Of a stretch of 59,204 nucleotides of DNA, positions 1,643-23,273 are shown piece by piece. Source of the DNA: a virus (lineage: Duplodnaviria > Caudoviricetes); the IMG/VR virus record IMGVR_UViG_3300029448_000035, positions 1-59,204 of that record, one strand, 5' to 3'. The translations under genes and the position numbers were made by a program. The notes below the pieces were generated by a model, which did no database searches, was not told the DNA's origin, and was given only the letters and a program-made list of their open reading frames with translations. Every line of letters starts with the position of its first letter. Within the stretch, counting starts at the first letter, position 1.

Positions 1643-1870
1643 ATGAGAGCCAAGAAAAGGAAGATCAAGAAGAAGGGTACTTACGACGTTGAGGTTGACG
1701 GTAAGACCTACCAGGTAAAAGGAAAGAAGGTAGAGAAGCGCGGGGGTCGTGTAACGAAGTTCAAAGCCAAAGGTGAAGGGGACGGCTTCAAGATTAAGAT
1801 CAAGGACAAACTCAAGAAGAGCAAGAGCGGCCTGGTCAAGAAGGATAAGAAACAGAGTAAGTACAAGTAA
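1643..1870 (+). CDS. small Lys-rich protein
   Basis: In-frame ATG 1643 (MRAKKRKIKK); stop overlaps next start. Confidence 0.75.
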   Translation: MRAKKRKIKKKGTYDVEVDGKTYQVKGKKVEKRGGRVTKFKAKGEGDGFKIKIKDKLKKSKSGLVKKDKKQSKYK

Positions 1871-2445
1871 TGCTAGGATTAGGAACATCAATAACTACAG
1901 GCTCTGTGAAGGCTAACCCCTATCCAAGTAAAGTTCTTTTTGAGAGAAGCGGGAATTGGACTTCTGATGACACAAGTCTAACTACATATAGAGCCAACCT
2001 GTCTGTTGGCACTACAGAGGTTGCAGGAATCAGCAACTATCTAGTCATTGAAATGACTTACTCAGGCGCCAGCGACGAAAGCGTAACGGACCCTAGGCTT
2101 AGAATTAGAGAGTCTGATTTATCAGGAGGTCTTTCTGACTACTTCGACAACAACGTTGGGGGAGACTATAAAATCACTGCGAAAGCGTTGTGGCCTTCAA
2201 GCAACAGTGGGACTATCGGAAACTCTTCTGTGCAGCCTGTAATTGGAGGTGTAGGTAGCGGACAAGCTTTTGGAACTGCCGATACTTGGGTTACAAGGTC
2301 AAACACAGAAGCGACAGAAGACAACGACATTTCAAACGATACATTTCCCTTTCAAGTGTTTTTCTTAGATAGTGACGTGGGTGAAATTCTAGATGGAGAC
2401 AAGATGTATTTGACTGATCTGAAGATAGAGTTTATCGCTGACTAA
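1870..2445 (+). CDS. putative virion beta-sandwich protein with MLGLG N-terminus
   Basis: 191 aa, S/T/G/D-rich, beta-strand pattern. Confidence 0.6.
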   Translation: MLGLGTSITTGSVKANPYPSKVLFERSGNWTSDDTSLTTYRANLSVGTTEVAGISNYLVIEMTYSGASDESVTDPRLRIRESDLSGGLSDYFDNNVGGDYKITAKALWPSSNSGTIGNSSVQPVIGGVGSGQAFGTADTWVTRSNTEATEDNDISNDTFPFQVFFLDSDVGEILDGDKMYLTDLKIEFIAD

Positions 2446-2452
2446 TAATAAC

Positions 2453-2460
2453 TATATTTG
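2453..2460 (+). promoter_or_regulatory. late -7 box TATATTTG, 4 nt before ATG
   Basis: TATATTTG-CCTC-ATG. Confidence 0.7.
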
Positions 2461-2464
2461 CCTC

Positions 2465-2731
2465 ATGGATACTACTCTTATTGATACCATCCCCGCCGTG
2501 ATCGATACCGTCACCGCCGTGATGGACAACCCCGAAGTCGTCATAGACGCTGTCGAAGAAGGCAGTGCCGTCTGGGACTTTATCGTCACGAACATTGGAG
2601 AGCTGGCTATCGGAATCCTTGCTTTCATTAAAATCATCGTCAACATCACCCCTACGGAAAAAGACAACAAAGTGTTTGGATGGCTCGATAGCCTCGTCAA
2701 CATGATCGTTTCAGACAGAAAGAAGAACTAA
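2465..2731 (+). CDS. small membrane protein, holin-like
   Basis: Hydrophobic helix LAIGILAFIKIIVNI then TPTEKD, basic C-terminus. Confidence 0.55.
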   Translation: MDTTLIDTIPAVIDTVTAVMDNPEVVIDAVEEGSAVWDFIVTNIGELAIGILAFIKIIVNITPTEKDNKVFGWLDSLVNMIVSDRKKN

Positions 2732-3186
2732 TGGTGAAAGCTAAGAAGACATACAAGAAGGGTGGAAAAATGAAACCCAAAACCACGGCAACCGCAAGGG
2801 GTGGATCTGTGGACGGAATGGCTAGAAAGAACTTCATGAAAGCCAGGAATAAAGCCGCTGAGCACATGAGAGGTTCTGCTCAGATGGCTGGTAAGGACGA
2901 TAAGCCTTCTGATTCTCTTAGGAAGAGAAAATACAAGAAGGGCGGTAAGGTCGTCGCTCAGGGTGCAGACAAGAAGGACGTCCGCCGAGAGAAGAAGCAA
3001 GACAGGGTAGCAGCTAGAGCCGCCAAGAAGGCCAAGCGTGTTGGAGACCGCAACTTCAAGCGTGACGTAAAGTCTGGTAAACTCAAAAAAAATTACGGTC
3101 ATGGCGGTAAGGTTGTTGCACAGGGTGCTGTCAAAAAGGCCGTGCGCCGCAAAACCAAAGGTATTGACCCAAAAGGAGGATCCTAA
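2731..3186 (+). CDS. basic protein with three YxxGG motifs
   Basis: YKKGG, YKKGG, YGHGG; GGKVVAQGA duplicated. Confidence 0.8.
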   Translation: MVKAKKTYKKGGKMKPKTTATARGGSVDGMARKNFMKARNKAAEHMRGSAQMAGKDDKPSDSLRKRKYKKGGKVVAQGADKKDVRREKKQDRVAARAAKKAKRVGDRNFKRDVKSGKLKKNYGHGGKVVAQGAVKKAVRRKTKGIDPKGGS

Positions 3187-3812
3187 TGATGCAGAATAGT
3201 ACAATGTCTGACATGATCAGACAAATGATGGAGCAGAAGCAGGGTGGTCAGCGCGTTCGTCGCGACAAAGACATGCCCGAAGAAATGATGATGGGGCAGG
3301 ACGCCTCTACCGTAAGGCAGGAGCAGGCCCCTGACGGGAGCATGCGGGAGTTCGTGTGGTACACCCCAGAAGGTGACGGCCCCATGTATGACGCTCCCGA
3401 CTCTGAATGGGAGAGCCAGACTGGTGCTATCAAAATCTACGGTAATTGGAACGAGTACGCCCAGGGTCAAGACGACCAGGGTGTCATGTTCCTCCCTGAC
3501 GATCAGTTCCCCTACAGACAGGGAGAGAACGGAGAGTTCATGCTCGACGAGTCCGTGAAAGAAGGGTCTATGCAATCCCCCCAGTTTGAGGAGACCATGC
3601 GCGGAAGAGAAGAGGGTGCCGAAATGGGCAGGAACCTCGGTGGTCCTGGGGCGTCCAAAATGGAAGACCTCATGCAGAAGCTTGCTGACAGGAACAGGAA
3701 GATGGGGATGGGGGGTAAGATTTACCGAAAGGGAGGTAAGTTCCCAGATCTCACTGGAGACGGAAGAGTCACCTTTGCAGACATCCTTAAAGGAAGAGGA
3801 GTAAAGCGATGA
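3186..3812 (+). CDS. Met-rich protein with MGMGG/YRKGG and C-terminal EF-hand-like loop
   Basis: DLTGDGRVTFAD fits a DxxxDGxVxxxD Ca-binding loop. Confidence 0.7.
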   Translation: MMQNSTMSDMIRQMMEQKQGGQRVRRDKDMPEEMMMGQDASTVRQEQAPDGSMREFVWYTPEGDGPMYDAPDSEWESQTGAIKIYGNWNEYAQGQDDQGVMFLPDDQFPYRQGENGEFMLDESVKEGSMQSPQFEETMRGREEGAEMGRNLGGPGASKMEDLMQKLADRNRKMGMGGKIYRKGGKFPDLTGDGRVTFADILKGRGVKR

Positions 3813-4030
3813 AAGCAAAAAAGAACCCCAGAAAGGTCGCTAGGCAGGCCAGGAAAGAAGATAAGTATACGGCTCGCAATAAAAGGATGCCTGATCCCAG
3901 GACTCCTGAGCAGAAGGCATCTGCATACCGCAAGCGCCGCAACAAGCGTCTCGTAAGAGGAGCGGCAGGGCTTATTACTGGCGCTGTCGTAGGAGGCGGA
4001 GAGTACAACGTCAGGCAGCGCAAGTCATGA
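3809..4030 (+). CDS. small basic protein
   Basis: 73 aa, overlaps neighbours (ATGA coupling). Confidence 0.7.
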   Translation: MKAKKNPRKVARQARKEDKYTARNKRMPDPRTPEQKASAYRKRRNKRLVRGAAGLITGAVVGGGEYNVRQRKS

Positions 4031-4260
4031 CGGGGGGCGACGACAAGAAAAAAAGAGGTGCAGCCGCACCGTCATCCGCTAACCTCTATGGGGGAACCCT
4101 TAGGCAGCGGAAGCCGAAGCCCGCAAAGGCAAAGAAGAAAAAGGTCAAAACCGTTTCGGGTAGAAGCGGAAAAGGCTTTTCCAGACGCAGGACAGGCGGA
4201 ATAAACTTTGGTAGAGGTGGAGGAAGAGGAATGAGGACGTCCAGGTCCTGTAGAAACTGA
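4027..4260 (+). CDS. small basic Gly/Arg-rich protein
   Basis: 77 aa, RGG-rich tail, coupled to upstream gene. Confidence 0.65.
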   Translation: MTGGDDKKKRGAAAPSSANLYGGTLRQRKPKPAKAKKKKVKTVSGRSGKGFSRRRTGGINFGRGGGRGMRTSRSCRN

Positions 4261-4320
4261 TGGGAAGCAAGGGTTACTTCAACCCACGAATGAAATCAAA
4301 AGACTTCAATAAGAAGAGGA

Positions 4321-4782
4321 ATGAAACTGTCCAAAAATTTGACCCTAAGGGAATGCACAAGAAGCATAACAGCATCCAGAAAGGGAATCGACAATACTCC
4401 AAAAGAAAAGGAAATAGCTAATCTCAAGCAGATAGCTGAAAATGTCTTTCAACCTCTCAGAGATCACTTTGGAGTCCCGATCTACGTTTCGTCGGGATAC
4501 AGGTCACAGCAACTCAATAAAGCCGTGGGCGGCAGTAGCGTGTCTCAGCATTGTCAAGGCCGCGCTCTTGACTTGGATGCTGATGTCTTCGGTGGGGTAA
4601 CCAATGCGGAAATATTTCACTATATCAAAGACTGCTTGGACTTTGATCAGCTCATATGGGAACTCGGTGATGACACCAATCCCGCATGGGTTCATGTCAG
4701 TTACAACTCCCCCACTGAAAACAGAGGGAGGGTCTTGAGGGCTTCGAGGAGGTCTAGCGCAACCGTGTACTCCCCATGGTAA
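4321..4782 (+). CDS. endolysin, peptidase M15 family
   Basis: SSGYRS...NKAVGG...SQHCQGRALD...WVHVSY Zn-peptidase motifs. Confidence 0.9.
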   Translation: MKLSKNLTLRECTRSITASRKGIDNTPKEKEIANLKQIAENVFQPLRDHFGVPIYVSSGYRSQQLNKAVGGSSVSQHCQGRALDLDADVFGGVTNAEIFHYIKDCLDFDQLIWELGDDTNPAWVHVSYNSPTENRGRVLRASRRSSATVYSPW

Positions 4783-5606
4783 AATTTACTCCAAGAACCT
4801 GTACATTTTTCATGGTGTACTACAAGCGTCCTGAGTTAACAAGGATGTCTATGTGGCACATGGCTAAGGCCATAAAGATGTTTAATGAGGCGGGCCACAA
4901 AACCAAAGGTATTGTAATTGGCTGCGGAAAATGCGAACCAAAAACCAAAGAGTACGCTGAGAAATTAGGGCTTCAGCACTTCGAAAAGCAAAACAATCCT
5001 CTGGGAAAGAAGTTTAGCTTTGCGTTCACTCAAGCTCTTTTACAAGAGACTGAATATATATGCTGGGTCGGAAGCAACAACTTTCATTCGAATGACTACT
5101 GGAAACACTGCATAAAGGTCATGGGGGGGCAAAGAGAAGTAAGCTTTGGGTCTAACAGGTTCTGCATCGTCAGTTCCGACCCTGAAAAACAAGAGACCTG
5201 TGTGTTTAAGACAAGAGAGAAAATGCATCTTTGTTCTTCGGGTCAGTTTTACTTAAACTACTCATTATCCAGGGCTGTAAACTTTAGGAGTATATACTCC
5301 GACAATCAGACGTGCAACTTTGACGGAAAGATCAACGGTGCAATATCTGGTCAATGGGATTCAAGTGTAATAAAGACAATACGTTCAGAAGAAAACGATT
5401 GCTTTGACGTAAAAAACGAAGAGAACATTCACTCTTACGAATCGTACATCAGGAAAAGAGGGGGAACTTATCCGCCCCACAAAGACAGAAAACAGCTTGT
5501 AGAGGAGTACGAAGAGATGAAGCTTTTAGATCTTGGATACTTCAAGCCAAGCTGCGATAAAATCGTTGAACCAGGAGCCGACCTTTCTGAGTTAGAGCGT
5601 ATCTAA
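4776..5606 (+). CDS. GT-A fold glycosyltransferase-like protein
   Basis: YYKRPEL start, NNPLGKK, YICWVGSNNF at the DxD position (degenerate). Confidence 0.55.
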   Translation: MVKFTPRTCTFFMVYYKRPELTRMSMWHMAKAIKMFNEAGHKTKGIVIGCGKCEPKTKEYAEKLGLQHFEKQNNPLGKKFSFAFTQALLQETEYICWVGSNNFHSNDYWKHCIKVMGGQREVSFGSNRFCIVSSDPEKQETCVFKTREKMHLCSSGQFYLNYSLSRAVNFRSIYSDNQTCNFDGKINGAISGQWDSSVIKTIRSEENDCFDVKNEENIHSYESYIRKRGGTYPPHKDRKQLVEEYEEMKLLDLGYFKPSCDKIVEPGADLSELERI

Positions 5607-5961
5607 CCCTGTAGTTGTATTTAGTCTCGTCTCTAAACAAGTGATCATCCATCTCTTGAGAGGGCGTGAGCTTGTCAAAATGCTTGTATAGCATCCCGTC
5701 GTTGACTAGCGGGTATATAACTCTGTTGGCTAGGTTGTCATGGTTCATTCCGTACTCCTGAGATGCATACGAGATGGTAAAGAACTCAAGATCGTAGGTC
5801 CAAATCAAGAACTCAAGATGACTCCAAGATATGTCGTTACTGTCGCAAAAAGAAAGCCTAACAGAATGTAGGTTCTTGAGGTGATTGTTTGCTACGTACC
5901 CCTCTCTTAAAAAAGAGAAGTCCCTAAACATGCGTTTCTTGGAGACTCTTGATCTGGGCAT
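5542..5961 (-). CDS. winged-helix DNA-binding protein
   Basis: MarR-like wing RVRYALTQKGRLLV. Confidence 0.65.
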   Translation of the reverse strand: MPRSRVSKKRMFRDFSFLREGYVANNHLKNLHSVRLSFCDSNDISWSHLEFLIWTYDLEFFTISYASQEYGMNHDNLANRVIYPLVNDGMLYKHFDKLTPSQEMDDHLFRDETKYNYRVRYALTQKGRLLVQRFYRSLA

Positions 5962-5968
5962 TTATCTC

Positions 5969-5976
5969 TATCTTTG
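5969..5976 (+). promoter_or_regulatory. late -7 box TATCTTTG, 4 nt before ATG
   Basis: TATCTTTG-ACAC-ATG. Confidence 0.65.
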
Positions 5977-5980
5977 ACAC

Positions 5981-6286
5981 ATGACCTCCAAGGACAAGGA
6001 ATTTATTTCAGAGGCCTACTCTTTGATTGTTCAGCTTGAAGAGCTAATCAAGAAGTACAACTACGAAGATAGGGTGATGTCGGCTCTTATGCTAGGGTTG
6101 ATTGACCTCGACCTGAGTAAGGACTACGAACAGGGCGACGAAGTAGAGCTTAAAAGCGTATTCAGCTACAATCTGGATAGCAAGCTAGAGCTGGAAATGG
6201 TGAAGGACATCATGACTCAGCAATTCCAAGACCCAGACGACGACCTGAGTTCACTGCTGGGAGACCTTGGAATATCCCTGAACTAA
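5981..6286 (+). CDS. acidic hypothetical protein
   Basis: 101-aa ORF, coupled to next gene. Confidence 0.75.
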   Translation: MTSKDKEFISEAYSLIVQLEELIKKYNYEDRVMSALMLGLIDLDLSKDYEQGDEVELKSVFSYNLDSKLELEMVKDIMTQQFQDPDDDLSSLLGDLGISLN

Positions 6287-6522
6287 TGAACGGATTGATA
6301 AGGAAGATCGTTATCGGGAAAGACCCGAAAAACGGCATGGCTTATTTCGTCGGAATGAGAGCTGGTGACAAAAACGTGTCAGCTATTATCCCTGATCAAG
6401 AGCATCTCCACAAGTACGGCAAAAGCAGATACCTAGTGTACATAGGAGATGAAGGGGGCATTGTGCTGTGGAAGGCGATTGATGAGATGCCATGTATACT
6501 TGAGTTTGATCTAGACTTCTAA
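6286..6522 (+). CDS. hypothetical protein upstream of GroES
   Basis: 78-aa beta-rich ORF. Confidence 0.75.
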   Translation: MNGLIRKIVIGKDPKNGMAYFVGMRAGDKNVSAIIPDQEHLHKYGKSRYLVYIGDEGGIVLWKAIDEMPCILEFDLDF

Positions 6523-6526
6523 TATA

Positions 6527-7111
6527 ATGAAATCACCCCTAAACTTTATCGTAAAAATAGACAGCACCACAAACAACAAAATGAAGACCGAAAGCGGTCT
6601 GGAGCTGTACGTAGACACCAAGTTCAATGAGTTTGATCACAGAACTACAGAAGGCGAAGTCCTGGCTGTACCAGAAAAAAGAGACACTCCTGTGGAGGTT
6701 GGAGATACGCTATATTTTCATCACCATGTGGTGCTCAACGGTGGGATGCCGATTAGCGAACTGGATAAGTGGTATATGGTTATCTATAACCCGCACCAAG
6801 CTGCATATAATCAAGCGATCGCCTACAAGAGCAAAAAGACGGGGAAGGTCAACCCGATTAAAGGTTGGTGTTTATTGGAGCCTGATCAAGAAGATCGCGA
6901 AAGACCTATTGAGTCTAAACTAGAGATAGTGAAGCTTAAAAAATCTCCAGTAACTACAGGTGTGGTATCCTTTCCGTCCAAAGAACTTGATGACATCGGC
7001 GTCTCCGATGGAGATGTGGTTGGCTTCAAAAAGAACAGAGACTATAGAATTAAGATCAATGAAAAAGAATACTACAGGGTCGCGGTCACAGAGCTCCTCT
7101 ACAAAATTTGA
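6527..7111 (+). CDS. co-chaperonin GroES-like protein (two tandem domains)
   Basis: TESGLEL...GEVLAVP...VEVGDTLYF and a second TGVV...VSDGDVVGF...INEKEYY unit. Confidence 0.75.
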   Translation: MKSPLNFIVKIDSTTNNKMKTESGLELYVDTKFNEFDHRTTEGEVLAVPEKRDTPVEVGDTLYFHHHVVLNGGMPISELDKWYMVIYNPHQAAYNQAIAYKSKKTGKVNPIKGWCLLEPDQEDRERPIESKLEIVKLKKSPVTTGVVSFPSKELDDIGVSDGDVVGFKKNRDYRIKINEKEYYRVAVTELLYKI

Positions 7112-7382
7112 CACGCTAGGGGCTGCGGTGAAGCTGATGAACGCGATGGCTATTGCCATTGACAACATGATCGAAGAGGTGAAAAAGCCAGTGGATCAGG
7201 ATGTTAACGGATCCGCGAGAAAGGCCGAACTTCAAGCCGTAAAACAAACCGCTGTAGACTGCAAGGAACTTATTAGGGAGAGGCAGTCTCTGGAGCAAAT
7301 GATAAAAGAGCTAAAAGAAAATGGAGAAGTCCAAGAAGAGAAAGACTACTCAGGAGGGTTTGCAGAGAAGTTCAGCAAGTAA
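7059..7382 (+). CDS. helical protein, possible terminase small subunit
   Basis: Coiled-coil pattern upstream of TerL; start uncertain (7059 or 7137). Confidence 0.5.
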   Translation: MKKNTTGSRSQSSSTKFDTLGAAVKLMNAMAIAIDNMIEEVKKPVDQDVNGSARKAELQAVKQTAVDCKELIRERQSLEQMIKELKENGEVQEEKDYSGGFAEKFSK

Positions 7383-7459
7383 CCATACTCTGACAGACAA
7401 GCACTTTAATTGGGTATCTTCGTCCACGACAGATCACGTATATTTTAACGACGAGTGGA

Positions 7460-7687
7460 ATGGCGAATACGAAGACTAGAGACTATGACAAAGAGTACAA
7501 AAAGTACGGGAAGTCCAGATCGGCGAAAAAGTATAGAGCTGAACTCAATAGGTATAACCGAAAGAAAGGGACGTATGGTAACGGGGATAAACTGGATGCG
7601 GCTCACGAAGGTGGTAAAATCAAAAGATTTGTTCGAGCTGCTGTAAACAGAGCAAACAATAGACCCTCACGCAGGGCAAGTAAATAA
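7460..7687 (+). CDS. small basic HNH-like protein
   Basis: RDYDKEY...GDKLDAAH...NRANN minimal HNH pattern. Confidence 0.55.
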   Translation: MANTKTRDYDKEYKKYGKSRSAKKYRAELNRYNRKKGTYGNGDKLDAAHEGGKIKRFVRAAVNRANNRPSRRASK

Positions 7688-7731
7688 ATTTTCGACGAGA
7701 CGGCCCCCTACGCAAAAGGGGTTGATCAAAC

Positions 7732-7805
7732 TGGGGCGTAGTTCAGTTGGTTAGAGCGTCTGTCTTATACACAGAAGGTCGAGGGTTCGAACCCCTCCGC
7801 CCCAA
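7732..7805 (+). tRNA. tRNA-Ile(UAU)
   Basis: Acceptor tggggcg/cgcccca, anticodon arm tctgt-CTTATAC-acaga, T arm gaggg-TTCGAAC-ccctc; no encoded CCA. Confidence 0.9.
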
Positions 7806-7817
7806 CAATTAAATACA

Positions 7818-7949
7818 ATGGCAAAACAAAACAGCACTTACGAAGCGAAGAAGAAGGTCAGCAGGCCTGGCGTGCATGCCAAAACCAAATCGTCGAAAAA
7901 CAAGTCCTCTCAGAACTACAGGAAGGCCTACAGGGGACAGGGGAGGTAA
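7818..7949 (+). CDS. 43-aa basic protein between the tRNAs
   Basis: MAKQNSTYEAKKKVSRPGVHAKTKSSKNKSSQNYRKAYRGQGR; A-rich leader; below ORF-track cutoff. Confidence 0.7.
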   Translation: MAKQNSTYEAKKKVSRPGVHAKTKSSKNKSSQNYRKAYRGQGR

Positions 7950-7964
7950 CTCTTCCCTATCTTT

Positions 7965-8038
7965 GCCCCTGTAGCTCAGTTGGATAGAGCAACAGCCTTC
8001 TAAGCTGTGGGTCCCAGGTTCGAACCCTGGCGGGGGTA
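7965..8038 (+). tRNA. tRNA-Arg(UCU)
   Basis: Cloverleaf with anticodon arm acagc-CTTCTAA-gctgt and GGTTCGAACC T loop. Confidence 0.92.
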
Positions 8039-8041
8039 CAA

Positions 8042-8719
8042 ATGAATGTTTATGCCACTATGTGTATGGTGCCTGACAGGTATCCTTCATCTCTGGATTG
8101 CGTCATGTCTTTAAAAGAGCAGGTTTCAAAAATATACTTGTGTCTGAACGGGTTTGATGAAGTACCAGAAGATCTAAAAGAGGACTGGATAGAGGTAATT
8201 CATATAGGAGAAAATCTTGGTGATGCGGCTCGATTTTTTAAGCTGCCTAGTATAGACGGCCATCTTATTTCGTGTGACGACGATCTTATATACCCTCATG
8301 GATATGTAGAGCAATTTTTGAAGTACAATTCTGTTTTTCCTGGATGTGTACTAACTCATCACGGAAAGCTGATGAGACCTGGAGGCTATGACATGAAGGT
8401 CATTGCTCACGCAATGGGAAACTCTCCAGACTCTGAAATGATAGACGTTCCAGGATCTGGGTGTTCGTTTCTCCCTTACAGGGTTATATCTGACAAGGAC
8501 TTTAAGTTCGGTGACCACACTGAGTTAAACATGTGTGACATACACCTGTTTGGTTTACTTAAATCTATGAGAGTCAACATAATTACGGTTCCTCATTTAA
8601 GAGGTTACTTTAAGTATGTCTCACCGCCTAAAGGCACTACTATATGGGAGACCGTTACTTCAAAAGAAGACTATAAGGAAAAGGTTAAATTGATATCTAA
8701 GTATTATTTAAATGTCTAA
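8042..8719 (+). CDS. glycosyltransferase (GT2-like, GT-A fold)
   Basis: ISCDDDLIYP DxD motif; DVPGSG and NMCD downstream. Confidence 0.8.
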   Translation: MNVYATMCMVPDRYPSSLDCVMSLKEQVSKIYLCLNGFDEVPEDLKEDWIEVIHIGENLGDAARFFKLPSIDGHLISCDDDLIYPHGYVEQFLKYNSVFPGCVLTHHGKLMRPGGYDMKVIAHAMGNSPDSEMIDVPGSGCSFLPYRVISDKDFKFGDHTELNMCDIHLFGLLKSMRVNIITVPHLRGYFKYVSPPKGTTIWETVTSKEDYKEKVKLISKYYLNV

Positions 8720-8894
8720 GTATAAGTGTGAATGCGGAAAAACCGCAGATATAACAGGTAGTGTAACGATCAAAGCGATTGACGGAGAGGTACGCCATGA
8801 CGTAAAGTGTGATTGCGGAAAGTACATGACTCTTGTCGAAAAGCGTAAAGGCATGCCGTCTTTTAAAAGCAACCGTTATGGACAAGTCCGATGA
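8712..8894 (+). CDS. small zinc-ribbon protein
   Basis: CECG...CDCG. Confidence 0.7.
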   Translation: MSKYKCECGKTADITGSVTIKAIDGEVRHDVKCDCGKYMTLVEKRKGMPSFKSNRYGQVR

Positions 8895-10989
8895 GGTTAT
8901 TCGGCTGGACAGCGGAAGCGACATGGGCGAGGTTATTTCGCTCCACGGTCTTGACATTGCTCTTCCGAAAATTCCAAAGAAATCAGACATTCTATTCCAC
9001 GACCTACCTAAAAGAATGCAGATGTGGCGCCGCACCGATGTGCCACAGGAATTGTCGAGGATTAGAAGTATGGATGAGTGGTTCGAGAAGCCAGCCGAGT
9101 TTCGACGCGCCTTTTCTCCTTTCGTCGAGCAAGAGTTTGAGCGCAGGCGTAACGGTGTTTGGTTTTACAATAATGGTGTGCCTACGTACATTACGGGAAG
9201 ACACTATATGTTCCTCCAGTGGTCGAAGATCGATATTGGCTATCCTTCGTACCTTGCGTTCCAGCGTGAGATCTTTATCCACATGGCTGCGTGCGAGGCT
9301 GATAGCCGTTGTATCGGTCAGCTATATACTAAGTGTCGCCGTTCTGGCTACACTAATATCTGTGCCTCTGTACTTGTTGACGAGGCTACGCAGGTAAAAG
9401 ACAAGCTCCTGGGAATACAGTCTAAGACTGGTAAAGACTCTCAGGAGAACATATTCATGAAGAAGGTAATCCCGATGTTTCGGAGCTACCCGTTCTTCTT
9501 TAAACCTATTCAGGATGGAACGACGAACCCACGTATGGAACTCGCTTTTCGGGAACCATCGAAACGAATCACCAAGAAGAATAAGACGTCACAGAAGGGG
9601 GATGCACTCAACACCATCATCAACTGGAAAAACACCACCAACAACGCTTACGACGGAGAAAAGCTACATATGCTCTACCTCGACGAGGCTGGAAAGTGGG
9701 AAAAGCCCGTCGACATCAAGGAAGCATGGCGGATTGAGCGAACTTGTCTCATCGTTGGTAAGAAAGTCGTAGGCAAAGCCCTCGTCGGTTCTACAGTGAA
9801 CCCGATGGACAAGGGTGGAGAGGAATACAAGAATTTGTGGGAGGACTCTGATCCCACGGAGAGAAACGCCAATGGTAGGACCCGAAGCGGGCTCTATAGG
9901 ATCTTTATCCCAGCGGACCAGGCATTGGAAGGATTCTTCGATAAATACGGGAACGCGGTTACTGAAACTCCGACTAAACCCATAGAAGGAATAGATGAAG
10001 AGATTATAGATCAGGGAAGTAGAGAATATCTAAAAAACGAGCGGGATTCCTTGAAACACGACCCTTCTGAACTCAACGAGATTATACGACAGTTTCCTTT
10101 AACTGAAGACGAAGCTTTTCGTGACAGCATTGAAGGAAGCGTATTTAACATCGGAAAGATTTATCAGCAAATAGACTGGAACAGCAACATGTACCCCAAC
10201 CCAGTCGTTACAGGCAACTTCATCTGGAAGGTGAAGGATAAGGAGGTGATGTTCTCTCCAGATCCTAAGGGGAGGTTCCATGTTAGCTGGATGCCACCTA
10301 AGGATAGGAGAAACGTAATACACGAAGAAAGAGGCAAGAGGGTGGCTCCGTTTTATCAGTATGGGTGCGGTGGAGTTGACTCGTATGACCTAGACGAAAC
10401 TGTTGACGGAAGGGGCTCTAAGGGGGCTCTTCACCTGTACAATAAGTTCAATATGGATGACAAAACCCCAAGCAACATGTTTGTGCTTGAGTATGCGTCC
10501 AGGCCAGATCTAGCCAGTATATTTTACGAAGATGTTCTTATGGCTTCTGTCTTCTATGGGTACCCACTACTCATTGAGAACAACAAGTATGGTATTGTAA
10601 GATACTTTGAAAAAAGAGGTTGGGACGGATATGTATTGGATCGACCCAAGCACCTAACCCCCCCAGGATCTACGGTGAAGGTCAAGACAAAGGGGATACC
10701 GTCTAACTCCGTTGATGTAATCCAGGCTCACGCGCACGCTATCGAAGCGTACATTCACAGTCACGTAGGGGTAAAGCCAGAGACCGCAGACTTTGGAAAC
10801 ATGTATTTTAACAGAACCCTTGAGGACTGGATAGGCTATAAAATAAGCAACAGAACAAAATACGACCTTACTATTAGTTCGGGTCTTGCGCTTCTTGCGG
10901 CTCAAAAAGTTAAGCAAGAAAGAAAAACCTCAAACTTCGAGGGGAAGAGGTTTGTCAGAAAGGTAAAGCCAAAAGAATGGCACCGCTAA
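8878..10989 (+). CDS. terL: terminase large subunit
   Basis: Walker A-like KCRRSGYT, Walker B LYLDEAGKW, VGST, nuclease GGVDSYD and YDLTIS; likely ATG 8878. Confidence 0.92.
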   Translation: MDKSDEVIRLDSGSDMGEVISLHGLDIALPKIPKKSDILFHDLPKRMQMWRRTDVPQELSRIRSMDEWFEKPAEFRRAFSPFVEQEFERRRNGVWFYNNGVPTYITGRHYMFLQWSKIDIGYPSYLAFQREIFIHMAACEADSRCIGQLYTKCRRSGYTNICASVLVDEATQVKDKLLGIQSKTGKDSQENIFMKKVIPMFRSYPFFFKPIQDGTTNPRMELAFREPSKRITKKNKTSQKGDALNTIINWKNTTNNAYDGEKLHMLYLDEAGKWEKPVDIKEAWRIERTCLIVGKKVVGKALVGSTVNPMDKGGEEYKNLWEDSDPTERNANGRTRSGLYRIFIPADQALEGFFDKYGNAVTETPTKPIEGIDEEIIDQGSREYLKNERDSLKHDPSELNEIIRQFPLTEDEAFRDSIEGSVFNIGKIYQQIDWNSNMYPNPVVTGNFIWKVKDKEVMFSPDPKGRFHVSWMPPKDRRNVIHEERGKRVAPFYQYGCGGVDSYDLDETVDGRGSKGALHLYNKFNMDDKTPSNMFVLEYASRPDLASIFYEDVLMASVFYGYPLLIENNKYGIVRYFEKRGWDGYVLDRPKHLTPPGSTVKVKTKGIPSNSVDVIQAHAHAIEAYIHSHVGVKPETADFGNMYFNRTLEDWIGYKISNRTKYDLTISSGLALLAAQKVKQERKTSNFEGKRFVRKVKPKEWHR

Positions 10990-10995
10990 GTTTGT

Positions 10996-11003
10996 TATAT
11001 TTG
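10996..11003 (+). promoter_or_regulatory. late -7 box TATATTTG, 7 nt before portal ATG
   Basis: TTGT-TATATTTG-CCGTTAG-ATG. Confidence 0.65.
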
Positions 11004-13465
11004 CCGTTAGATGTACGGTAAGCAAGGAAAGAATACTGTAGGCTTTCCGAATCCGCTGGCAAACAAGGCGGAGAAGGAGGGCAAGGAGTACGGTCTGTCA
11101 TACGCGAAGGCCATTTCCTCGCAGTGGGGCGCCGTGGAGCGCGACAACTCTCTGTATAAAAAGAGGTCCAGGACCTTTGAAAGAAACAGAGCTTACGCTA
11201 ACGGAACGCAAGACACGAGCATCTATAGGCAGTTGTTGAACAGCCTCGACCCGTCGAACAATGACGGAAGCTTCTTGAACCTTGACTTTACCCCTGTGCC
11301 GATCCTCCCCAAGTTTGTCAGGATCGTGGTAAACAAGATACTATCAAGTGATCCGTATCCGAACTTAGAAGCCGTCGACCCCCTCTCAGCCTCTGAAAAA
11401 GACGCAGAAAGGAGAAAGGTAAAGATGCTAGTCCAGAACAAGGACAAGATCTCCCAGATTAAAGATAAGATTGGGGTTGACTTAGCTCAGGGTCAGGATA
11501 TACCTGAAACCCTTGAGGAGGCTGAGATCTTCCTGGAGACCAATATAAAGTCTGCATCAGAGGTTGCGGCTCAGGTAGCTACCAACATGACCTTGAAGTG
11601 GAATGACTTCAACGACTCTACTTACAGGAGGTGTGTCAACGATATCGCCACCCTGGGTATGGCGGTCACTAAGAGAAGCAATGACCCGAACTACGGTATT
11701 AAGGTTGACTACGTAGACCCCAAAAATTTTGTTCACAGCTATACTGAGGACCCTAATTTCGGCGATATCGTCTATGCTGGTCATGTCAAGAGAATCTCTT
11801 TGCAAGAACTTCGTAGGGTTGCTGGTGATCAGTTTACTGACGAAGAGTATGAGAAGATTGCCAAGACCGTAGCTAAGAGGTATCAGTACGATACCACATC
11901 GATGCGGGCCTACTTGAACGATAGTAAAGGAAGAAATGAGTACGATCAGTATATGGTCGACGTTTTGGACTTTGAGTTTCTCTCTGTGGACACGATGGTC
12001 TTCGAAGAGAAGCAGAGCAAGTACGGAAACGTTGGCTTCTATCAGAAAGGAGAAAACTACAAGGCGCCAACCAATTCTGTATACAAGAGGTCTGTAACTA
12101 AAATGCCGAACGTAGCTGTCTACGGAGGCTCATACATAATGGGCTGTGACAAGCTCTTCAGCTACGGTGTAAAAAAGAACGTACCTAAGAACGTTCATGA
12201 CCTTAGTCGCACTAACCTATCTTATTCTGTCGTTGCTACTAATCTTGACGGAAACATTCCGAAATCCATGGTAGACAGCTGCATTGGTTTTGCAGACCAG
12301 TTGCAGCTTACACACCTGAAGATTCAGCAGGCAATAGCAAAAGCAAAGCCCGATGGCATCATCATTGATATCGAGGGTTTGGAGAACGTTCAGCTCGGAA
12401 AAGGGGGTGAGCTCCAACCTCTCGAACTGCACGACATCTACGAACAAACGGGTGTCTTCTACTACCGCAGCAAAAATCCCGAAGGCGGTTTCCAGAACCC
12501 TCCCATCAGGGAAATCGGTAACAACATACGGAACATCAACGAGTTCATCAACCTCTACAATCACTACCTGAGGCTGATTAGGGATGCCACGGGAATCAAC
12601 GAGGCTATGGATGCCTCTACCCCGAAGGGAGATCAACTTGTGGGTGTTAGGCAGCAGGCTATCGCGGCTGGAAACAACGCCATCTACGACATCACGAACT
12701 CGTCTATGGTTCTCTTTAAGAAGGTTTGCTCTGACATTGTAAAGTGCCTTCAGGTTATACCCAGGGGAAGTATTCTGTACAGGGCGTATGAGAACGCCAT
12801 AGGCAAGGAGAACGTGTCTATGCTTAACACCTTCTCTGACCTCCCGATGTACAACTTCGGAGTTACGGTCGTTAAGGAGATGGAGGAGATTGAAAAGCAG
12901 TACCTCGAACAAAATATACAGGCGTCTCTGGCTCAGAAAGAATTAGACATCGAAGACGCCATAGCGATCAGGCAGCTCAAGGATGTAAATCAGGCCGAGC
13001 GCCTTTTGATCGTAAGAAGAAAAAAGCGGATTTCCAGGAATCAGCAGATGGCCCAGCAAAACGTTCAAGCTCAGTCACAGGCACAGATTCAGTCTGCTCA
13101 GGCGGCGTCACAGGCTAAGCAGCAAGAGATGCAGATGCAGGCTCAGATCGACGCTCAGGCTATGCAGTTGAAAGCTCAGCTTGAGTCCCAGCTTGAAGTC
13201 CTTCGTCATCAGCACAAAAAAGAGATTGAAACTATGAAGGCTCAGGCTACTCTTGGATTCAAGACCGACGACCAGGAGTTCAGAGAGAAGCTGGAGGTTT
13301 TCAAGGAAGACCGAAAGGATATGCGGGTTGGTAAGCAGACCGCAGATCAAAGTAAACTGATTTCACAGAGACAAGGAACAAGAGGAGAAGTAGGAGAGCC
13401 TCAGCCCATTCAGCAGCAAGAAGGGCCGATGACTCCCGACCAAATAATACAGCAAGCAATACAAA

Positions 13466-19158
<5,693 letters not shown>

Positions 19159-19162
<4 letters not shown>

Positions 19163-19326
19163 GCAGCAAAACTTTAAAAAAAATACCTGAAGACCTCACC
19201 ATCGAGGGGTATGTGAAAACAGACCCATTGGCAAGTGATGCGAGTCTATCAGAAGTGATCTCTACCCTCAACGAAGTCATCCAGAAGACTGAAGAGTTGA
19301 TAGAAATACTTATTGGCGAAAGCTGA
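19159..19326 (+). CDS. 55-aa protein, possible fibre chaperone or decoration
   Basis: ATGA-coupled [16 protein letters not shown]...EILIGES fills the gap; not in ORF track. Confidence 0.6.
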
Positions 19327-19327
19327 T

Positions 19328-19335
19328 TATATTTG
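19328..19335 (+). promoter_or_regulatory. late -7 box TATATTTG, 5 nt before ATG
   Basis: TATATTTG-CATTT-ATG. Confidence 0.7.
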
Positions 19336-19340
19336 CATTT

Positions 19341-19634
19341 ATGAAAGCCCGCAAATCCTACAAAAAAGGAGGACGAGTCTCACTTAAAATGGGGAAGCAT
19401 AAGGACCGCAAAGGAGGTCTTACGCAGGCTGGAGTAGACAAGTACAACCGAGAGACGGGAAGTAACTTGAAGATGGCTGTTACGACCAAACCTTCTAAAC
19501 TAAAAAAAGGCAGCAAAGCCGCTAAAAGAAGAAAGAGTTTTTGTGCAAGGATGAGCGGCGTCAAAGGGCCCATGAAAAAGCCAAATGGAAAACCGACACG
19601 TAAAGCACTGGCTCTGAAAAAATGGAATTGTTAA
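19341..19634 (+). CDS. basic protein (DUF6321-like) with YKKGG leader
   Basis: KGGLTQAG...YNRETGSNLK...RRKSFCARM...ALKKWNC. Confidence 0.75.
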   Translation: MKARKSYKKGGRVSLKMGKHKDRKGGLTQAGVDKYNRETGSNLKMAVTTKPSKLKKGSKAAKRRKSFCARMSGVKGPMKKPNGKPTRKALALKKWNC

Positions 19635-19846
19635 AAGACATGGACACGCTCACGCAATTCGAACTCCTAGCTATTGCTGGTTCACTCATTGGGATGTGGA
19701 TCAAGTTTCAGACAGATTATACGGCCCTGAAGGCCAGAGTTCACGCCCTAGAAAGTGACAACGGAGAGCTGAAGCAAAACATAAAACAGCTTCTCCAAGA
19801 TATACAGGAGGTCAAACTTCTCTTAGCTAAAAACAAAGTAGTATGA
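19622..19846 (+). CDS. single-TM coiled-coil protein (holin or spanin-like)
   Basis: LLAIAGSLIGMWI followed by heptads. Confidence 0.6.
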   Translation: MELLKDMDTLTQFELLAIAGSLIGMWIKFQTDYTALKARVHALESDNGELKQNIKQLLQDIQEVKLLLAKNKVV

Positions 19847-20103
19847 AAAACACAGCCCTTACATCTTTTGGTCAGCACGGATACAAGTTGATCACTGACA
19901 CCACCGCAACAACTCCAGACACGGACACGAACTTCGTTGCCATAACTGTGCTCTCAGCGAGTACTACCGTCACGACCGAATCCTCCGACACGGACAGGTT
20001 CCCTAACATGTCTACTCAAGCCATCCCAAGCGGAGTCACTGTGTACGGAAGCTGGAGCAAAATTACCCTTGGCGCAGGTGCCGTCATAGCATACATGGCA
20101 TGA
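19843..20103 (+). CDS. small beta-rich virion protein
   Basis: IPSGVTVYGSWSKITL...VIAY. Confidence 0.65.
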   Translation: MKNTALTSFGQHGYKLITDTTATTPDTDTNFVAITVLSASTTVTTESSDTDRFPNMSTQAIPSGVTVYGSWSKITLGAGAVIAYMA

Positions 20104-20291
20104 AGGCAGTCAAGTATCAGAAGGGTGGAAAGCTGAAAGTGCTCAATAAGAAAGTGAGCATCGATCCTCCGAAGGGTTATCACTGGATGGAGGAGTCTGG
20201 ACGGTACTACCTCATGGAAGGGGATTACAAGCCTCACCCTGGAGCCGTTGCTAAAGCGTCATTTAAAACCGTGACCCATGGCAAAGGCTAA
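20100..20291 (+). CDS. small protein with YQKGG leader
   Basis: MKAVKYQKGG...PPKGYHWM. Confidence 0.75.
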   Translation: MKAVKYQKGGKLKVLNKKVSIDPPKGYHWMEESGRYYLMEGDYKPHPGAVAKASFKTVTHGKG

Positions 20292-20475
20292 AAAGTTTAA
20301 CCCAAAGTACACCACTGGCAGTGCTAACGTAGATGAAAGAAAAAAGCTGATGACTGAAATCAGCAACATTTATAAAAAGCACAGGGGAACGGCAGCGAAA
20401 AGAAAAAAGAAGGGGTTTCCTCCATCGGTGGAGGCAAGGCTCAAGTCGTTAATGAAAAGAAGAGACAAGATATGA
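20278..20475 (+). CDS. small basic protein
   Basis: 65-aa ORF, overlapping neighbours. Confidence 0.7.
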   Translation: MAKAKKFNPKYTTGSANVDERKKLMTEISNIYKKHRGTAAKRKKKGFPPSVEARLKSLMKRRDKI

Positions 20476-20675
20476 AGCCAGTAAAAAAGTACAAAAAGGG
20501 AGGTATGGCGGGCCTTAGTGCGGCTCAGAAGGAGGTGTACAGAAGGGGGCTTGCAGCATACATGAGCTCTGGAAACAGGCCCAAAGTGTCTCAACACGCA
20601 TGGGCCATGGCCAGGGTAAAGAGCGATTTTGGTCGCAAAGAAGCGGCTAAAATAAGGGCTAAAAAAGGGAAGTAA
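20472..20675 (+). CDS. small basic protein (DUF5824-like) with YKKGG leader
   Basis: VYRRGLAAY..GNRP..SQHAWAMARV. Confidence 0.7.
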   Translation: MKPVKKYKKGGMAGLSAAQKEVYRRGLAAYMSSGNRPKVSQHAWAMARVKSDFGRKEAAKIRAKKGK

Positions 20676-20683
20676 TCCCTAAC

Positions 20684-20691
20684 TATATTTG
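20684..20691 (+). promoter_or_regulatory. late -7 box TATATTTG
   Basis: AAC-TATATTTG, 14 nt before ATG 20706. Confidence 0.65.
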
Positions 20692-20705
20692 ATAAAATTT
20701 AATTC

Positions 20706-21773
20706 ATGGAGGAAAATACAATTCCTAACGATCAGCCGCAAGGGGAAGACCTGAGCAACTGGTCGTTTGCAGACGAAAGTGAAGTGCTGGAAGCCCAAAA
20801 GCAAGAAGGCCTGATAGATGAAGAACAGATTCCAGAAACCGAAACGGTAGAGGAAGAAGTCTACAAAGAGACCTCAACGGAGGATTCTCAGAGTGAATAT
20901 ATCGAAGACTACGACCAAGATGAACTGGAGGGTGCAGTTCTCGAATACATAAGCGAAAGGCTGGGGTTCGAGGTAGGCTCCCTTGAGGAACTCACGGAAG
21001 TAGAGCAGCAGCAAGCAGAGCTTGACGAAAGGATTGAGGTCATCATGGACTTTGTCGAACAGACGGGTCGAGACCCTCAAGACTGGTTTATCTACCAGCA
21101 GCTTAACCCCTCCGAAATGGATGACGTCACTGCAATTCAGGTTCAGCTGTCTAGTGACTACCCCAACCTGTCTCAGGATGAGGTCGTCACGCTGATGAAC
21201 AACAAGTACAAGCTCGATCCTGATCAGCACACAGATGATGAGGTGAAAGTTTCGCAGCTGCAGCTCAAGATCGATGCCCAGAATGCACGTCAGTCTATTG
21301 ACGAACTCAGAGAGCAGTACGCCGCCCCTGAAGTGCAGGAAGAAGCTGAAAGTCTTGGGAACCTTTTCGACGAGGATTGGTACGATGCCATGGAGGCTGA
21401 AACTGCCGCTCTAGACGCAGTCGAGTTTGATCTCGGTAACGGAATGAGCTTTACGTTCGGACTCAATGATGAGTATCGTAACGAGCTTGTCGACAAGAAC
21501 TCTCGCCTTGACGAGTACTTTGATCCCTACGTCCAACGGGATGGTAACTGGGACTACGACAAGCTGAATGTTCATAGGGCTGTGATTGACAATATGGAAG
21601 AGATTGTCCAAGCTGTATATAAGCAGGGAATGTCTGACGGTCAACGCGGTCTAGTGAATCAAGCAGCAAACGTTGGAGTCCCATCTCCGAATCAAGGTGG
21701 GCAACAACAGGAAGACAATCTTTCCAAGCAGCTTAGAGAAGCTCTTGGTGGTGACTCGACCTGGTCTTTTTAA
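20706..21773 (+). CDS. capsid scaffolding-like protein
   Basis: Very acidic, helical, directly upstream of the capsid gene. Confidence 0.65.
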   Translation: MEENTIPNDQPQGEDLSNWSFADESEVLEAQKQEGLIDEEQIPETETVEEEVYKETSTEDSQSEYIEDYDQDELEGAVLEYISERLGFEVGSLEELTEVEQQQAELDERIEVIMDFVEQTGRDPQDWFIYQQLNPSEMDDVTAIQVQLSSDYPNLSQDEVVTLMNNKYKLDPDQHTDDEVKVSQLQLKIDAQNARQSIDELREQYAAPEVQEEAESLGNLFDEDWYDAMEAETAALDAVEFDLGNGMSFTFGLNDEYRNELVDKNSRLDEYFDPYVQRDGNWDYDKLNVHRAVIDNMEEIVQAVYKQGMSDGQRGLVNQAANVGVPSPNQGGQQQEDNLSKQLREALGGDSTWSF

Positions 21774-21803
21774 AACCAACAACAACAAAACATATAAGCT
21801 ATT

Positions 21804-23273
21804 ATGGCTACACAGAATCATACTGACGTCGGCAACTTGCTGAAGTCGTCGCCAGATAAATACATCTCCCTTGGGGAGTTGCTCAAGTACAACAAGCCTG
21901 ACAACAGGGACTTGTTGATCAAAACCTACGGTGACCAAGGTATCACTGGTTTCCTTCAACTGACGGGTGCTACCCGCTCTGCTGGTGTTCAGGACGAAGT
22001 CCAATACTGGGAGGAGGGTCGTCTCCACAGAAAGTTCGAGGGTTTCTTCGATGCTTCCGCTGGTAAGATCTATGTTAAAGAGAACTCTGCTACTGCTGGG
22101 GACTACTTTGACAACAAGGGTATTCCTTGCCGAGTGAACGACGTTCTCATGACCAGAGACGGCATCCGTCTCGTTGTTACGGGAACCTCTGCTGATGCCA
22201 ACCCTGCTACCGCTGGTACTCAGGATCAAGACGCTACGGTGACCGTTAAGCGCCTTGACGGAGCTAATATGTCTACTGACGCTGGTACTGGTCCTGCATC
22301 CACATCCGCTACTGGAAACCAGGCTGATGTTCCGTTCATAGTTATCGGTAACATCCACGCTCAGGGAACCAAGCAGCCGAACAAGTTCTACCAAACGGAC
22401 GTGACCAAGAGAACCAACCCCTTCCTCATCACGAAGGAGACGTACCACGTCAACGGTTCTCAGGCTACGAACATTGGCTGGATCAACATCGGCAACGGTG
22501 ACTACCGCTGGTATGTTAAGGGTGAGATGGACACGCGGAAGCGTTTCATGGATCAGAGGGAGATGATGATGCTGTTCTCCGAGAAGGTGTCCAGCGGAAA
22601 CATCTCCATCCCGAACAGCCCGACCGACACCTCTAACAGTGGTAAGATCACTGGTTCTGAGGGCTACTTCCAGGCTGTGGAGGATCGCGGTATCACCACT
22701 GATGGATTCGGTTCGACCACTACGTTCAGCGATATTGACAACATCATCTTCGAGCTCGACAAGCAGGGCGCTCCTAGCGAGTACGCCATGTACGTCGACA
22801 ACAAGACGAGCCTCAATATCGACGACATGTTGGCCGCTGGTATCAACGCAGGTTCAGGTGGCGACTCGATGACCGCTGGTCTGCCTGGTCAGTTCGGTGC
22901 GTTTAACAACGACCGCGACATGGCTGTTCAGCTCGGATTCAAGAGCTTCACCCGTGGTGGATACACCTTCCACAAGCACGACTGGAAGCTCCTGAACGAC
23001 CCGACCCTCTTGGGTGCATTCTCCACGAAGCCTTACAGAGGCGCCATGGTTCCGATGACTCAGGTCACGGACGCCAAGACTGGCACCAAGGCTCCTGCTC
23101 TGGAGATGAACTTCAAGGAGACCAACGGCTACAGCAGAGAGCTGGAGCACTGGGTTGAAGGCGGTGGTGTCCTCGGATTCAAGACGAATGACGAGGACGT
23201 GGCTAAGTTCCACTACCGTTCTGAGTGCAACCTGATCACCCGCGCTGCTAACCAGCACGTGGTGTTGAACTAA
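21804..23273 (+). CDS. major capsid protein
   Basis: 489 aa after scaffold; YWEEGRLH, LGFKSFTRGGYTFHK; biased codon usage; followed by a hairpin. Confidence 0.85.
   Translation: MATQNHTDVGNLLKSSPDKYISLGELLKYNKPDNRDLLIKTYGDQGITGFLQLTGATRSAGVQDEVQYWEEGRLHRKFEGFFDASAGKIYVKENSATAGDYFDNKGIPCRVNDVLMTRDGIRLVVTGTSADANPATAGTQDQDATVTVKRLDGANMSTDAGTGPASTSATGNQADVPFIVIGNIHAQGTKQPNKFYQTDVTKRTNPFLITKETYHVNGSQATNIGWINIGNGDYRWYVKGEMDTRKRFMDQREMMMLFSEKVSSGNISIPNSPTDTSNSGKITGSEGYFQAVEDRGITTDGFGSTTTFSDIDNIIFELDKQGAPSEYAMYVDNKTSLNIDDMLAAGINAGSGGDSMTAGLPGQFGAFNNDRDMAVQLGFKSFTRGGYTFHKHDWKLLNDPTLLGAFSTKPYRGAMVPMTQVTDAKTGTKAPALEMNFKETNGYSRELEHWVEGGGVLGFKTNDEDVAKFHYRSECNLITRAANQHVVLN

Follow-up and report, generated by a model that had tools for sequence, protein, structure and literature searches.

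The window analysed here, the 59,204 nucleotides of the IMG/VR virus record IMGVR_UViG_3300029448_000035 (Duplodnaviria; Caudoviricetes), encodes two clusters of small basic proteins, several of which share a short lysine-rich peptide ending in Gly-Gly. We call this peptide the hook; its consensus is K-K-[Y/M/F]-x-K-G-G-[K/R]-[V/L/A]. The hook is a real motif, selected at the peptide level and restricted to viruses, and it occurs in tightly packed gene strings of the late arm of the genome. It is portable between unrelated proteins, disordered in structural models, and optional within orthologous families.

Hook copies and their carrier proteins

Both clusters are strings of co-oriented genes whose neighbours overlap by 1-14 nucleotides. 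N-terminal copies of the hook are MVKAKKTYKKGG (2731), MKARKSYKKGG (19341), MKAVKYQKGG (20100), and MKPVKKYKKGG (20472); internal copies are YKKGG (2932), YGHGG (3094), MGMGG (3702), and YRKGG (3723). Short leaders without Gly-Gly, namely MRAKK (1643), MKAKK (3809), and MAKAKK (20278), begin three further proteins. Every one of these strings, first listed in a reading of the DNA alone (hereafter the original prediction), was recovered at its position, all on the plus strand and within named open reading frames (ORFs).

Cluster 1 (1643-4260) begins with a very basic protein of 75 residues (1643..1870, plus strand, net charge +23) that has the MRAKK leader and no Gly-Gly hook. A further basic protein (2731..3186, plus strand, 151 residues, net +39) carries three hooks, one at its N terminus (Tyr at 2752) and two internal ones, YKKGG at 2932 and YGHGG at 3094, each of which heads one copy of a duplicated KVVAQGA.KK.VRR mini-module. 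It belongs to no family, and its protein-atlas model has a mean predicted local distance difference test score (pLDDT) of 0.56. The adjoining 208-residue protein (3186..3812, plus strand) passes from an acidic N-terminal domain through the hooks MGMGG (3702) and YRKGG (3723) to a C-terminal mini-module resembling an EF-hand or dockerin (KFPDLTGDGRVTFADILKGRGV), which both of its hooks precede. The original prediction had these internal copies cutting two proteins into segments; more precisely, they head mini-modules in the proteins at 2731 and 3186. The cluster ends with a basic protein of 73 residues (3809..4030, plus strand, net +19; MKAKK leader, no hook) and a basic, Gly-rich one of 77 residues (4027..4260, plus strand, net +22), which has no hook and a single FGRGG string.

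Cluster 2 contains, all on the plus strand, a DUF6321 protein of 97 residues (19341..19634; hook leader at residues 1-11), a 63-residue protein that we call B-type (20100..20291; hook leader at residues 1-10, beta-rich body from L12), a basic protein of 65 residues (20278..20475; MAKAKK leader, no hook), and a DUF5824 protein of 67 residues (20472..20675; hook leader at residues 1-11). It also includes a 74-residue ORF with membrane and coiled-coil segments (19622-19846). The protein at 19341 matches DUF6321 (PF19846) with 87.7 bits against a cut-off of 28.5 (E 7.8e-25), the match beginning at residue 20, and the protein at 20472 matches DUF5824 (PF19141) with 34.9 bits against a cut-off of 25 (E 2e-8), beginning at residue 17, so that both profile matches leave the hook leader uncovered. 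For the other hook-bearing proteins of the window we found no Pfam, NCBIfam, or informative PHROG family; on the small proteins, PHROGs returned families of "unknown function" only. The bodies downstream of the hook are indeed unrelated, as had been proposed: they fall into different Pfam families and are alike only in short K-rich stretches.

The hook exceeds what composition would produce

In a six-frame translation of the window, Y.KGG occurs six times on the plus strand and never on the minus strand; all six strings lie within named ORFs, and four of them lie no more than 11 residues from the start Met. We shuffled each of 75 window proteins, taken from a crude longest-ORF call, with M1 kept in place. 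The six observed Y.KGG strings compare with a mean of 0.24 in the shuffles, and the four proteins with Y.KGG in their first 15 residues compare with 0.014; neither observed count was reached in any of 1000 shuffles. Plain KGG is not enriched (10 observed against 7.1, with 167 of 1000 shuffles reaching 10), placing the signal in the Tyr and its position rather than in K/G content. Across the 80 relatives described below (1.415 Mb), Y.KGG was found 87 times in plus frames and once in minus frames, and scrambled pentapeptides were found 6-21 times. An exact scan of IMG/VR with the back-translated leader returned 84 stretches, compared with three for a scrambled leader of equal composition.

K/G composition as the cause of the motif frequency, the objection raised with the original prediction, is ruled out by the shuffles and the scrambled controls. 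A DNA-level repeat or recent copy is ruled out as well, since the codons differ between copies: the seven window copies compared use different Lys, Tyr, and Gly codons, in agreement with the earlier claim that conservation is at the peptide level. We also considered a Shine-Dalgarno-like GGAGG within the Gly-Gly codons, which is present in some copies only and at the wrong spacing to any ATG.

The hook is portable across relatives and other phage lineages

Scanning IMG/VR with the capsid protein of the window identified 313 confirmed relatives; we retrieved 80 of them, at 51-87% identity. In the window, these 80 loci, and two isolate records, 76 ORFs begin with M-x(3-8)-Y-x-[KR]-G-G, a count that includes nested alternative starts (three in L071, two each in L078 and L081, and 3702/3708 in the window); 75 of them lie on the strand of the capsid gene. 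The leader heads at least six unrelated bodies: DUF6321 (A), a 61-residue "HWME..GRYYLM" protein (B), DUF5824 (C), a "KDACY..PSAYASG..KCRK" body (D), an EF-hand/dockerin-like loop, "KFPDLTGDGKVT.ADILKGRGV" (E), and a body marked by "GQWSARKAQ" (WSARKAQ; F). Where bodies are fused into one gene (E+C, E+B, E+F, and others), [Y/F/M]-x-K-G-G is kept at each junction. With at least six bodies among the 80 relatives, further occurrences in other lineages, and the scan count of 84 against three, the original idea of a portable tag on unrelated small basic late proteins is well borne out.

Outside the clade of the window phage there are proteins made of tandem hooks alone, with three to about ten copies, and many hook arrays that are capped by a recurrent end of the "KVRGAGIARKGVRPAKM" type. 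This C-terminal cap, K[VI]RG.G[IM]A.[KR]G.[RK]..KM, is not found in the window; it occurs in the loci L258, L269, L270, L282, L287, L298, L309, L311, L317, L318, L325, L328, and L329. From the leader scan 80 loci were fetched, of which 33 have hallmark genes of the window's clade, 41 have none, and six have the terminase alone, at 22-24% identity. One locus (L122) has a distant terminase and a portal of the same PHROGs as the window, and in another (L103) the terminase belongs to a different family and a ferredoxin gene is present. The Tyr/Met and the Gly-Gly recur in at least three phage lineages. A scan for the internal motif found at least 118 stretches, and Lys+Arg make up 20% or more of the residues in 68 of the 81 ORF instances examined.

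Prokaryote genomes totalling 596 Gb contain the leader pattern in 26 stretches only. Twelve of these are one recurring C-terminal tail of longer ORFs; most of the remaining 14 are ORFs no longer than a few dozen residues, unlike the phage proteins. The nearest protein-atlas clusters are 100% Viruses and hypothetical only. The recurring tail belongs to Bacilli-type genomes (L365-L390, for example L378:3799-5163), where M-K-x-M-K-x-Y-K-K-G-G begins it; the one tail-bearing ORF tested is SRP54/Ffh by Pfam, a context unrelated to the phage proteins. In a contig of a giant-virus metagenome-assembled genome (L284), a 61-residue ORF has T-Y-K-K-G-G followed by a Lys/Pro-rich tail, a single case.

Two side observations concern the bodies. 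The EF-hand/dockerin-like mini-module, a putative Ca-binding loop of about 22 residues (PDL[TN].DGK[VI]T.AD[IV]LKGRGV; 3738-3809 in the window), is itself portable, being found also in L088, L111, L156, L176, and gp44 of HTVC027P (L170:1492-1758); one relative has a weak Dockerin_1 match (E 0.042). Such a module would suit a protein that meets seawater calcium. In the cultured pelagiphage HTVC027P, gp44 continues from this module into FKKGG, and gp47 contains the strings GYKVGG, MRGG, and MYKKGG. In Roseobacter phage CRP-901 (L168:1100-1640), B-type and D-type bodies lie in different frames within an unannotated gap of 0.5 kb, and no ATG lies between the preceding stop and the B-type body; this stretch may hold unannotated small genes or a frameshifted string.

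The hook is optional among orthologues

We counted the motif per body within the window's own clade, as strict Y.KGG, loose variants, or none. Body B has 41 strict, 6 loose, and 22 motif-free members; DUF6321 (A) has 10, 3, and 15; DUF5824 (C) has 13, 5, and 3; D has 10, 2, and 8; E has 5 strict, 2 loose, and none without a motif; and F has 2 strict, no loose, and 20 motif-free members. In the motif-free members the leader is simply basic, as in MPKVKKKK or MKAKK (M-K-x-K-K). Presence of the hook is uncoordinated among the proteins of one genome, for example in L050. In an alignment of B-type proteins (49 of 78 unique sequences), every invariant column belongs to the body; conservation reaches at least 90% at K5, K11, and L12 but not at the Tyr and the Gly-Gly.

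DUF6321 extends far beyond hook-bearing proteins, with at least 7,999 homologues near the query length and at least 7,975 longer ones among the scored candidates. Among the best 120 homologues of similar length, the junction is of the [YFM]xxGG type in 14, a bare GG in 4, and neither in 102. In long proteins the DUF6321 core could be located in 119 of 120, mostly at the extreme C terminus (median relative end 0.99), behind a junction that mostly reads K-Y-K-x-G-S-K-x-V-S-L, that is, Gly-Ser; [YFMW]x[KRNSQ]GG is near the junction in 13 of the 119 and absent nearby in 106. Two proteins (P0182 and P0189) fuse DUF6321 and DUF5824. One of 769 residues (P0203) combines a tail-associated-lysin-like stretch (phrog_1047, 2e-8) with a C-terminal DUF6321; this weak lysin stretch was the only informative match when PHROGs were run on ten long DUF6321 proteins. 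Hook-free bodies are also found in the pelagiphages HTVC106P (gp28, gp26) and HTVC111P (gp59) and in the cyanophages KBS-P-1A and MED4-184.

Structure of the leader and the bodies

AlphaFold2 modelling of the B-type alignment gave a mean pLDDT of 85.5; residues 1-10 average 53 and have no secondary structure, and the beta-rich body begins at L12. For DUF6321, modelled from 49 of 120 homologues together with the window protein and one locus sequence, the mean was 77.9, with residues 1-6 and 8-11 below 50, followed by three helices. The low pLDDT of the leader in both models indicates that the hook is a disordered arm outside either fold, as would be expected of a linear motif. We had also considered that the leader might be part of the fold, forming a beta-hairpin with the first strand, which is unsupported, as both models leave it disordered.

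Foldseek against the PDB gave no match for the B-type model at E up to 0.001; a wide VIA-align fold search gave none for B-type at Z of at least 2 and a best Z of 3.7 for DUF6321; and PDB sequence searches with the B-type and DUF6321 alignments and the DUF5824 protein gave nothing below E 0.1. The B-type body of the window (20100-20291) has the invariant residues H28, H46, H60, W29, R35, and Y43, and may represent a new type of small metal-binding fold. A complex prediction from the scaffold and B-type alignments scored 0.17 against a mark of 0.32 and was used neither for nor against an interaction.

Genome context

The window is a phage genome arm with a large terminase (8833-10989), a portal (11011-13500), and further virion proteins. 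Cluster 1 stops right before a Peptidase M15 endolysin gene (4321..4782, plus strand). Cluster 2 is followed after 30 nucleotides by the gene of a scaffold-like protein (20706..21773, plus strand, 355 residues), just upstream of the major capsid protein gene (21804-23273). All 80 relatives encode an equivalent of the scaffold-like protein that is strongly acidic, with a net charge of -32 to -68. The capsid protein shares about 30% identity with its counterparts in the Cellulophaga phages phi38:1 and Calle and the Flavobacterium "elemo" phages. The terminase, portal, scaffold, and capsid genes are contiguous in isolates of the phi38:1/elemo type; in the window, a gap of about 7 kb between portal and scaffold holds collagen-like fibre genes and then cluster 2.

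Near-identical DNA, whole or in part, occurs in 20 marine metagenome runs from 12 studies. The stretch 20100-20710 is represented, at 0-3 differences per piece, among contigs of RNA libraries from two studies (X17; X19 and X20), consistent with its transcription or with DNA carry-over in the libraries; within 17200-23300 only covered parts were interpreted. The box TATATTTG, within 19316-19340, stands 5 nucleotides ahead of the ATG at 19341, where the first gene of cluster 2 starts, and resembles the -7 promoter box of the Bacteroidota. With so little space before the ATG, the mRNA leader at 19341 would be almost absent.

A virion protein of 1539 residues (25784-30403) has a Crassvirus muzzle protein C-terminal domain (PF25729, 1.9e-9), and the capsid protein of the phage is nearest to Cellulophaga phi38:1-type podoviruses; the tail tip may be crass-like. 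The giant protein at 33437-42994 (3185 residues) contains a DUF3293 domain (residues 894-965) and a domain like mycobacteriophage L5 gp82 (residues 2088-2209), and the C-terminal half of a 194-residue protein (6527-7111) is Cpn10/GroES-like.

Function of the hook

We propose, tentatively and at somewhat less than even odds, that the hook is an uncleaved, disordered, polyanion-binding arm on small late proteins that are probably associated with DNA. The hook itself would be the working unit, an electrostatic arm on a polyanion, most likely nucleic acid, in which charge would come from Lys, a stacking or wedge contact from Tyr or Met, and flexibility from Gly-Gly. Binding would strengthen with copy number, and a plain Lys-rich arm could substitute. 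Its carriers would be accessory late proteins made with scaffold and capsid, probably ending with the DNA in the head. We infer nucleic-acid binding, a location in the virion, and the absence of cleavage. The existence of proteins made of tandem hooks alone suggests that the hook is a unit of function. Polyanion binding, most likely of nucleic acid, is suggested by the match between the logic of the hook and that of the AT-hook, SPKK, and RGG motifs: all are short, disordered, basic, and Gly-containing, are borne in one to many copies on unrelated domains, and occur in repeat-only proteins. Those motifs are described mainly in eukaryotes. The likeness is in logic only, as the hook core, unlike them, is without R-G-R-P, S-P-K-K, or R-G-G. 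We also looked for the Pfam KGG stress-protein repeat, which gave no match in the window proteins (E up to 1) or in ten hook-rich relatives (E up to 0.1).

Several observations weigh against this proposal. The Tyr/Met and Gly-Gly are conserved beyond what charge alone needs, so that a sequence-specific reader is possible. Many DUF6321 relatives have acidic N-terminal extensions in place of basic ones, and the fold searches gave no DNA-binding analogue for the B-type or DUF6321 body. Bodies A, B, C, D, and F also occur hook-free, 28 of the 80 relatives have no Y.KGG in the fetched stretch, and no hook-type ORFs were found in the cultured relatives phi38:1 and elemoE; the hook is therefore dispensable, and there is no assembly phenotype to lean on. 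Finally, the basic clusters adjoin the endolysin in the window, HTVC106P, and HTVC111P, which would fit a role in lysis too.

The original prediction had gone further than a portable, peptide-level tag, the part that stood: it proposed that the leader, like an address label, directs basic cargo into the procapsid and/or is cut after Gly-Gly. No test supported this second part, and sequence comparisons have weakened it, leaving it, in our view, unlikely. The idea has clear attractions. The motif lies 1-3 residues ahead of each conserved body and at every fused-module junction, like a polyprotein or leader site; it is disordered in the models and hence accessible; the hook genes lie beside those of scaffold and capsid; and the scaffold-like protein, with its strong acidity in all 80 relatives, could carry basic tags in. 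Under cleavage, fused and split forms would give the same mature mini-proteins, and tandem arrays would give short basic peptides. Phage T4 offers a precedent in the capsid targeting sequence shared by its diverse internal proteins IPI-III and Alt, which is portable to foreign cargo and, like the hook, is a short N-terminal peptide common to diverse small, often basic proteins, those of T4 being internal to the head (as described in PMC3012670). In the case of the hook, a shared N-terminal peptide was found on four window proteins and on at least six body families in relatives. The tag of T4 is not known to be rich in lysine; it is strictly N-terminal, and its end forms a Glu-type site for the prohead protease gp21. 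Unlike it, the hook is Lys-rich, ends in Gly-Gly, occurs also internally and in tandem, and is optional among orthologues, and the Pfam scans found no prohead protease of the phage's own for which the leader could end in a site. Loading into the head is further argued against by the uncoordinated presence of the tag among the proteins of a single genome and by the pure tandem arrays, which have no cargo to deliver. Cleavage after Gly-Gly fares no better. The hook does resemble the substrates of adenain (adenovirus pVII and pre-mu), of African swine fever virus pS273R, of C39 bacteriocin leader peptidases, and of LXGG deubiquitinases in that these are basic, DNA-condensing, or leader-bearing precursors and have Gly-Gly at a boundary. 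However, adenain, C39, and LXGG proteases favour a hydrophobic residue at the fourth position before the cut, unlike the hook, whose Tyr/Met would be fifth and whose Lys would be third. Across 331 unique KGG contexts, P5 is Tyr at a frequency of 0.44 and P4 varies (K 0.40, N 0.11), Lys at P3 being fixed by the design of the search. The Gly-Gly and the Tyr are lost in many orthologues while the body is intact, and the long DUF6321 junctions are mostly Gly-Ser. Nor was a fitting protease found, in agreement with the earlier remark that no dedicated head protease was recognised: among 72 window proteins of at least 45 residues scanned with Pfam, the collagen-like protein of 1102 residues aside, the sole peptidase is the M15 endolysin, with no clan CE or C39 domain and no prohead protease, although a protease without a Pfam signature is possible.

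Two further explanations seem less probable again. The hook might have little function of its own, being a flexible junction left by the shuffling of mini-modules, with the N-terminal copies kept because mRNAs with very short leaders are translated better when A-rich Lys codons follow the ATG. The extensive module shuffling, the optional presence of the hook among orthologues of the body families, and the M-K/R-x-x-K start of all these proteins, hook or no hook, fit this explanation, as does the TATATTTG box 5 nucleotides before the ATG at 19341, with the very short leader RNA that it implies. We nevertheless consider it very unlikely, because the peptide is kept while the codons differ, three or more phage lineages share the Tyr/Met and the Gly-Gly, internal and tandem copies would be useless for initiation, and the real leader was found 84 times against three for the scrambled one. 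Slightly more improbable still is a lysis role for the small cationic proteins, which might for instance disrupt the outer membrane together with the endolysin, the hook binding membrane or lipopolysaccharide. Here gene order provides the case: cluster 1 directly precedes the M15 endolysin, homologous small basic genes directly follow the endolysin in HTVC106P and HTVC111P, and in 17 of 80 endolysin-anchored loci there are Y.KGG ORFs within 5 kb, all 21 of them on the endolysin strand; cluster 2 moreover includes the ORF with membrane and coiled-coil segments at 19622-19846. Yet cluster 2 adjoins the scaffold and capsid genes, not the endolysin, and at the locus examined in cyanophage KBS-P-1A, DUF6321 has psbA on one side and an acidic protein adjacent to the portal on the other. 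Conserved folded domains, not amphipathic helices, make up the bodies, and about ten such genes per genome are many for one lysis step.

The proposal of a nucleic-acid-binding arm can be taken further, to a version that we regard as rather doubtful. Several unrelated lineages of abundant marine phages would share a previously undescribed construction kit of dozens of portable mini-domains strung together by the Tyr/Met-x-Lys-Gly-Gly hook, yielding protamine-like sticker-and-spacer proteins that coat or condense the genome in the head and enter the cell with the DNA. The hook would then be the prokaryotic-virus counterpart of the AT-hook or RGG motif, its copy number tuning the affinity for DNA, and the mini-domains (the Ca-binding loop, the His-rich beta fold, and the Cys-bearing DUF6321) could add separate functions. 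In crassviruses, heads and tails hold cargo protein amounting to several MDa alongside the DNA (PMC10172136), and the window phage has the crAss muzzle C-terminal domain. Unlike the hook proteins, the cargo detected in PhiCrAss001 consists of large proteins of 60-277 kDa; we found no small lysine-rich cargo described there, and the main text is without the terms "cleav", "proteolytic", and "basic" (PMC10172136).

Significance

Hook-type genes are common in ocean viromes, and yet we found no paper on the motif or its bodies, nor a function or structure for them. In the literature library searched, no paper mentions DUF6321 or DUF5824; among the matches listed for YKKGG or KKGG with phage, none concerns phage proteins; and the main text of the HTVC027P transcriptome paper (PMC12753301) names neither gp44 nor gp47. 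Short portable basic motifs and small basic phage proteins are already known, and the hook is new as a variant of these. Were it cut after Gly-Gly instead of binding nucleic acid, the consequence would be an unrecognised maturation protease in podoviruses thought to have none. Should the hook indeed be a unit that binds nucleic acid, a sizeable block of the small basic phage genes labelled "hypothetical" would be explained; phage biology would gain a new short linear motif, and a simple tag would be at hand for loading proteins, or tethering them to DNA, in marine phages.

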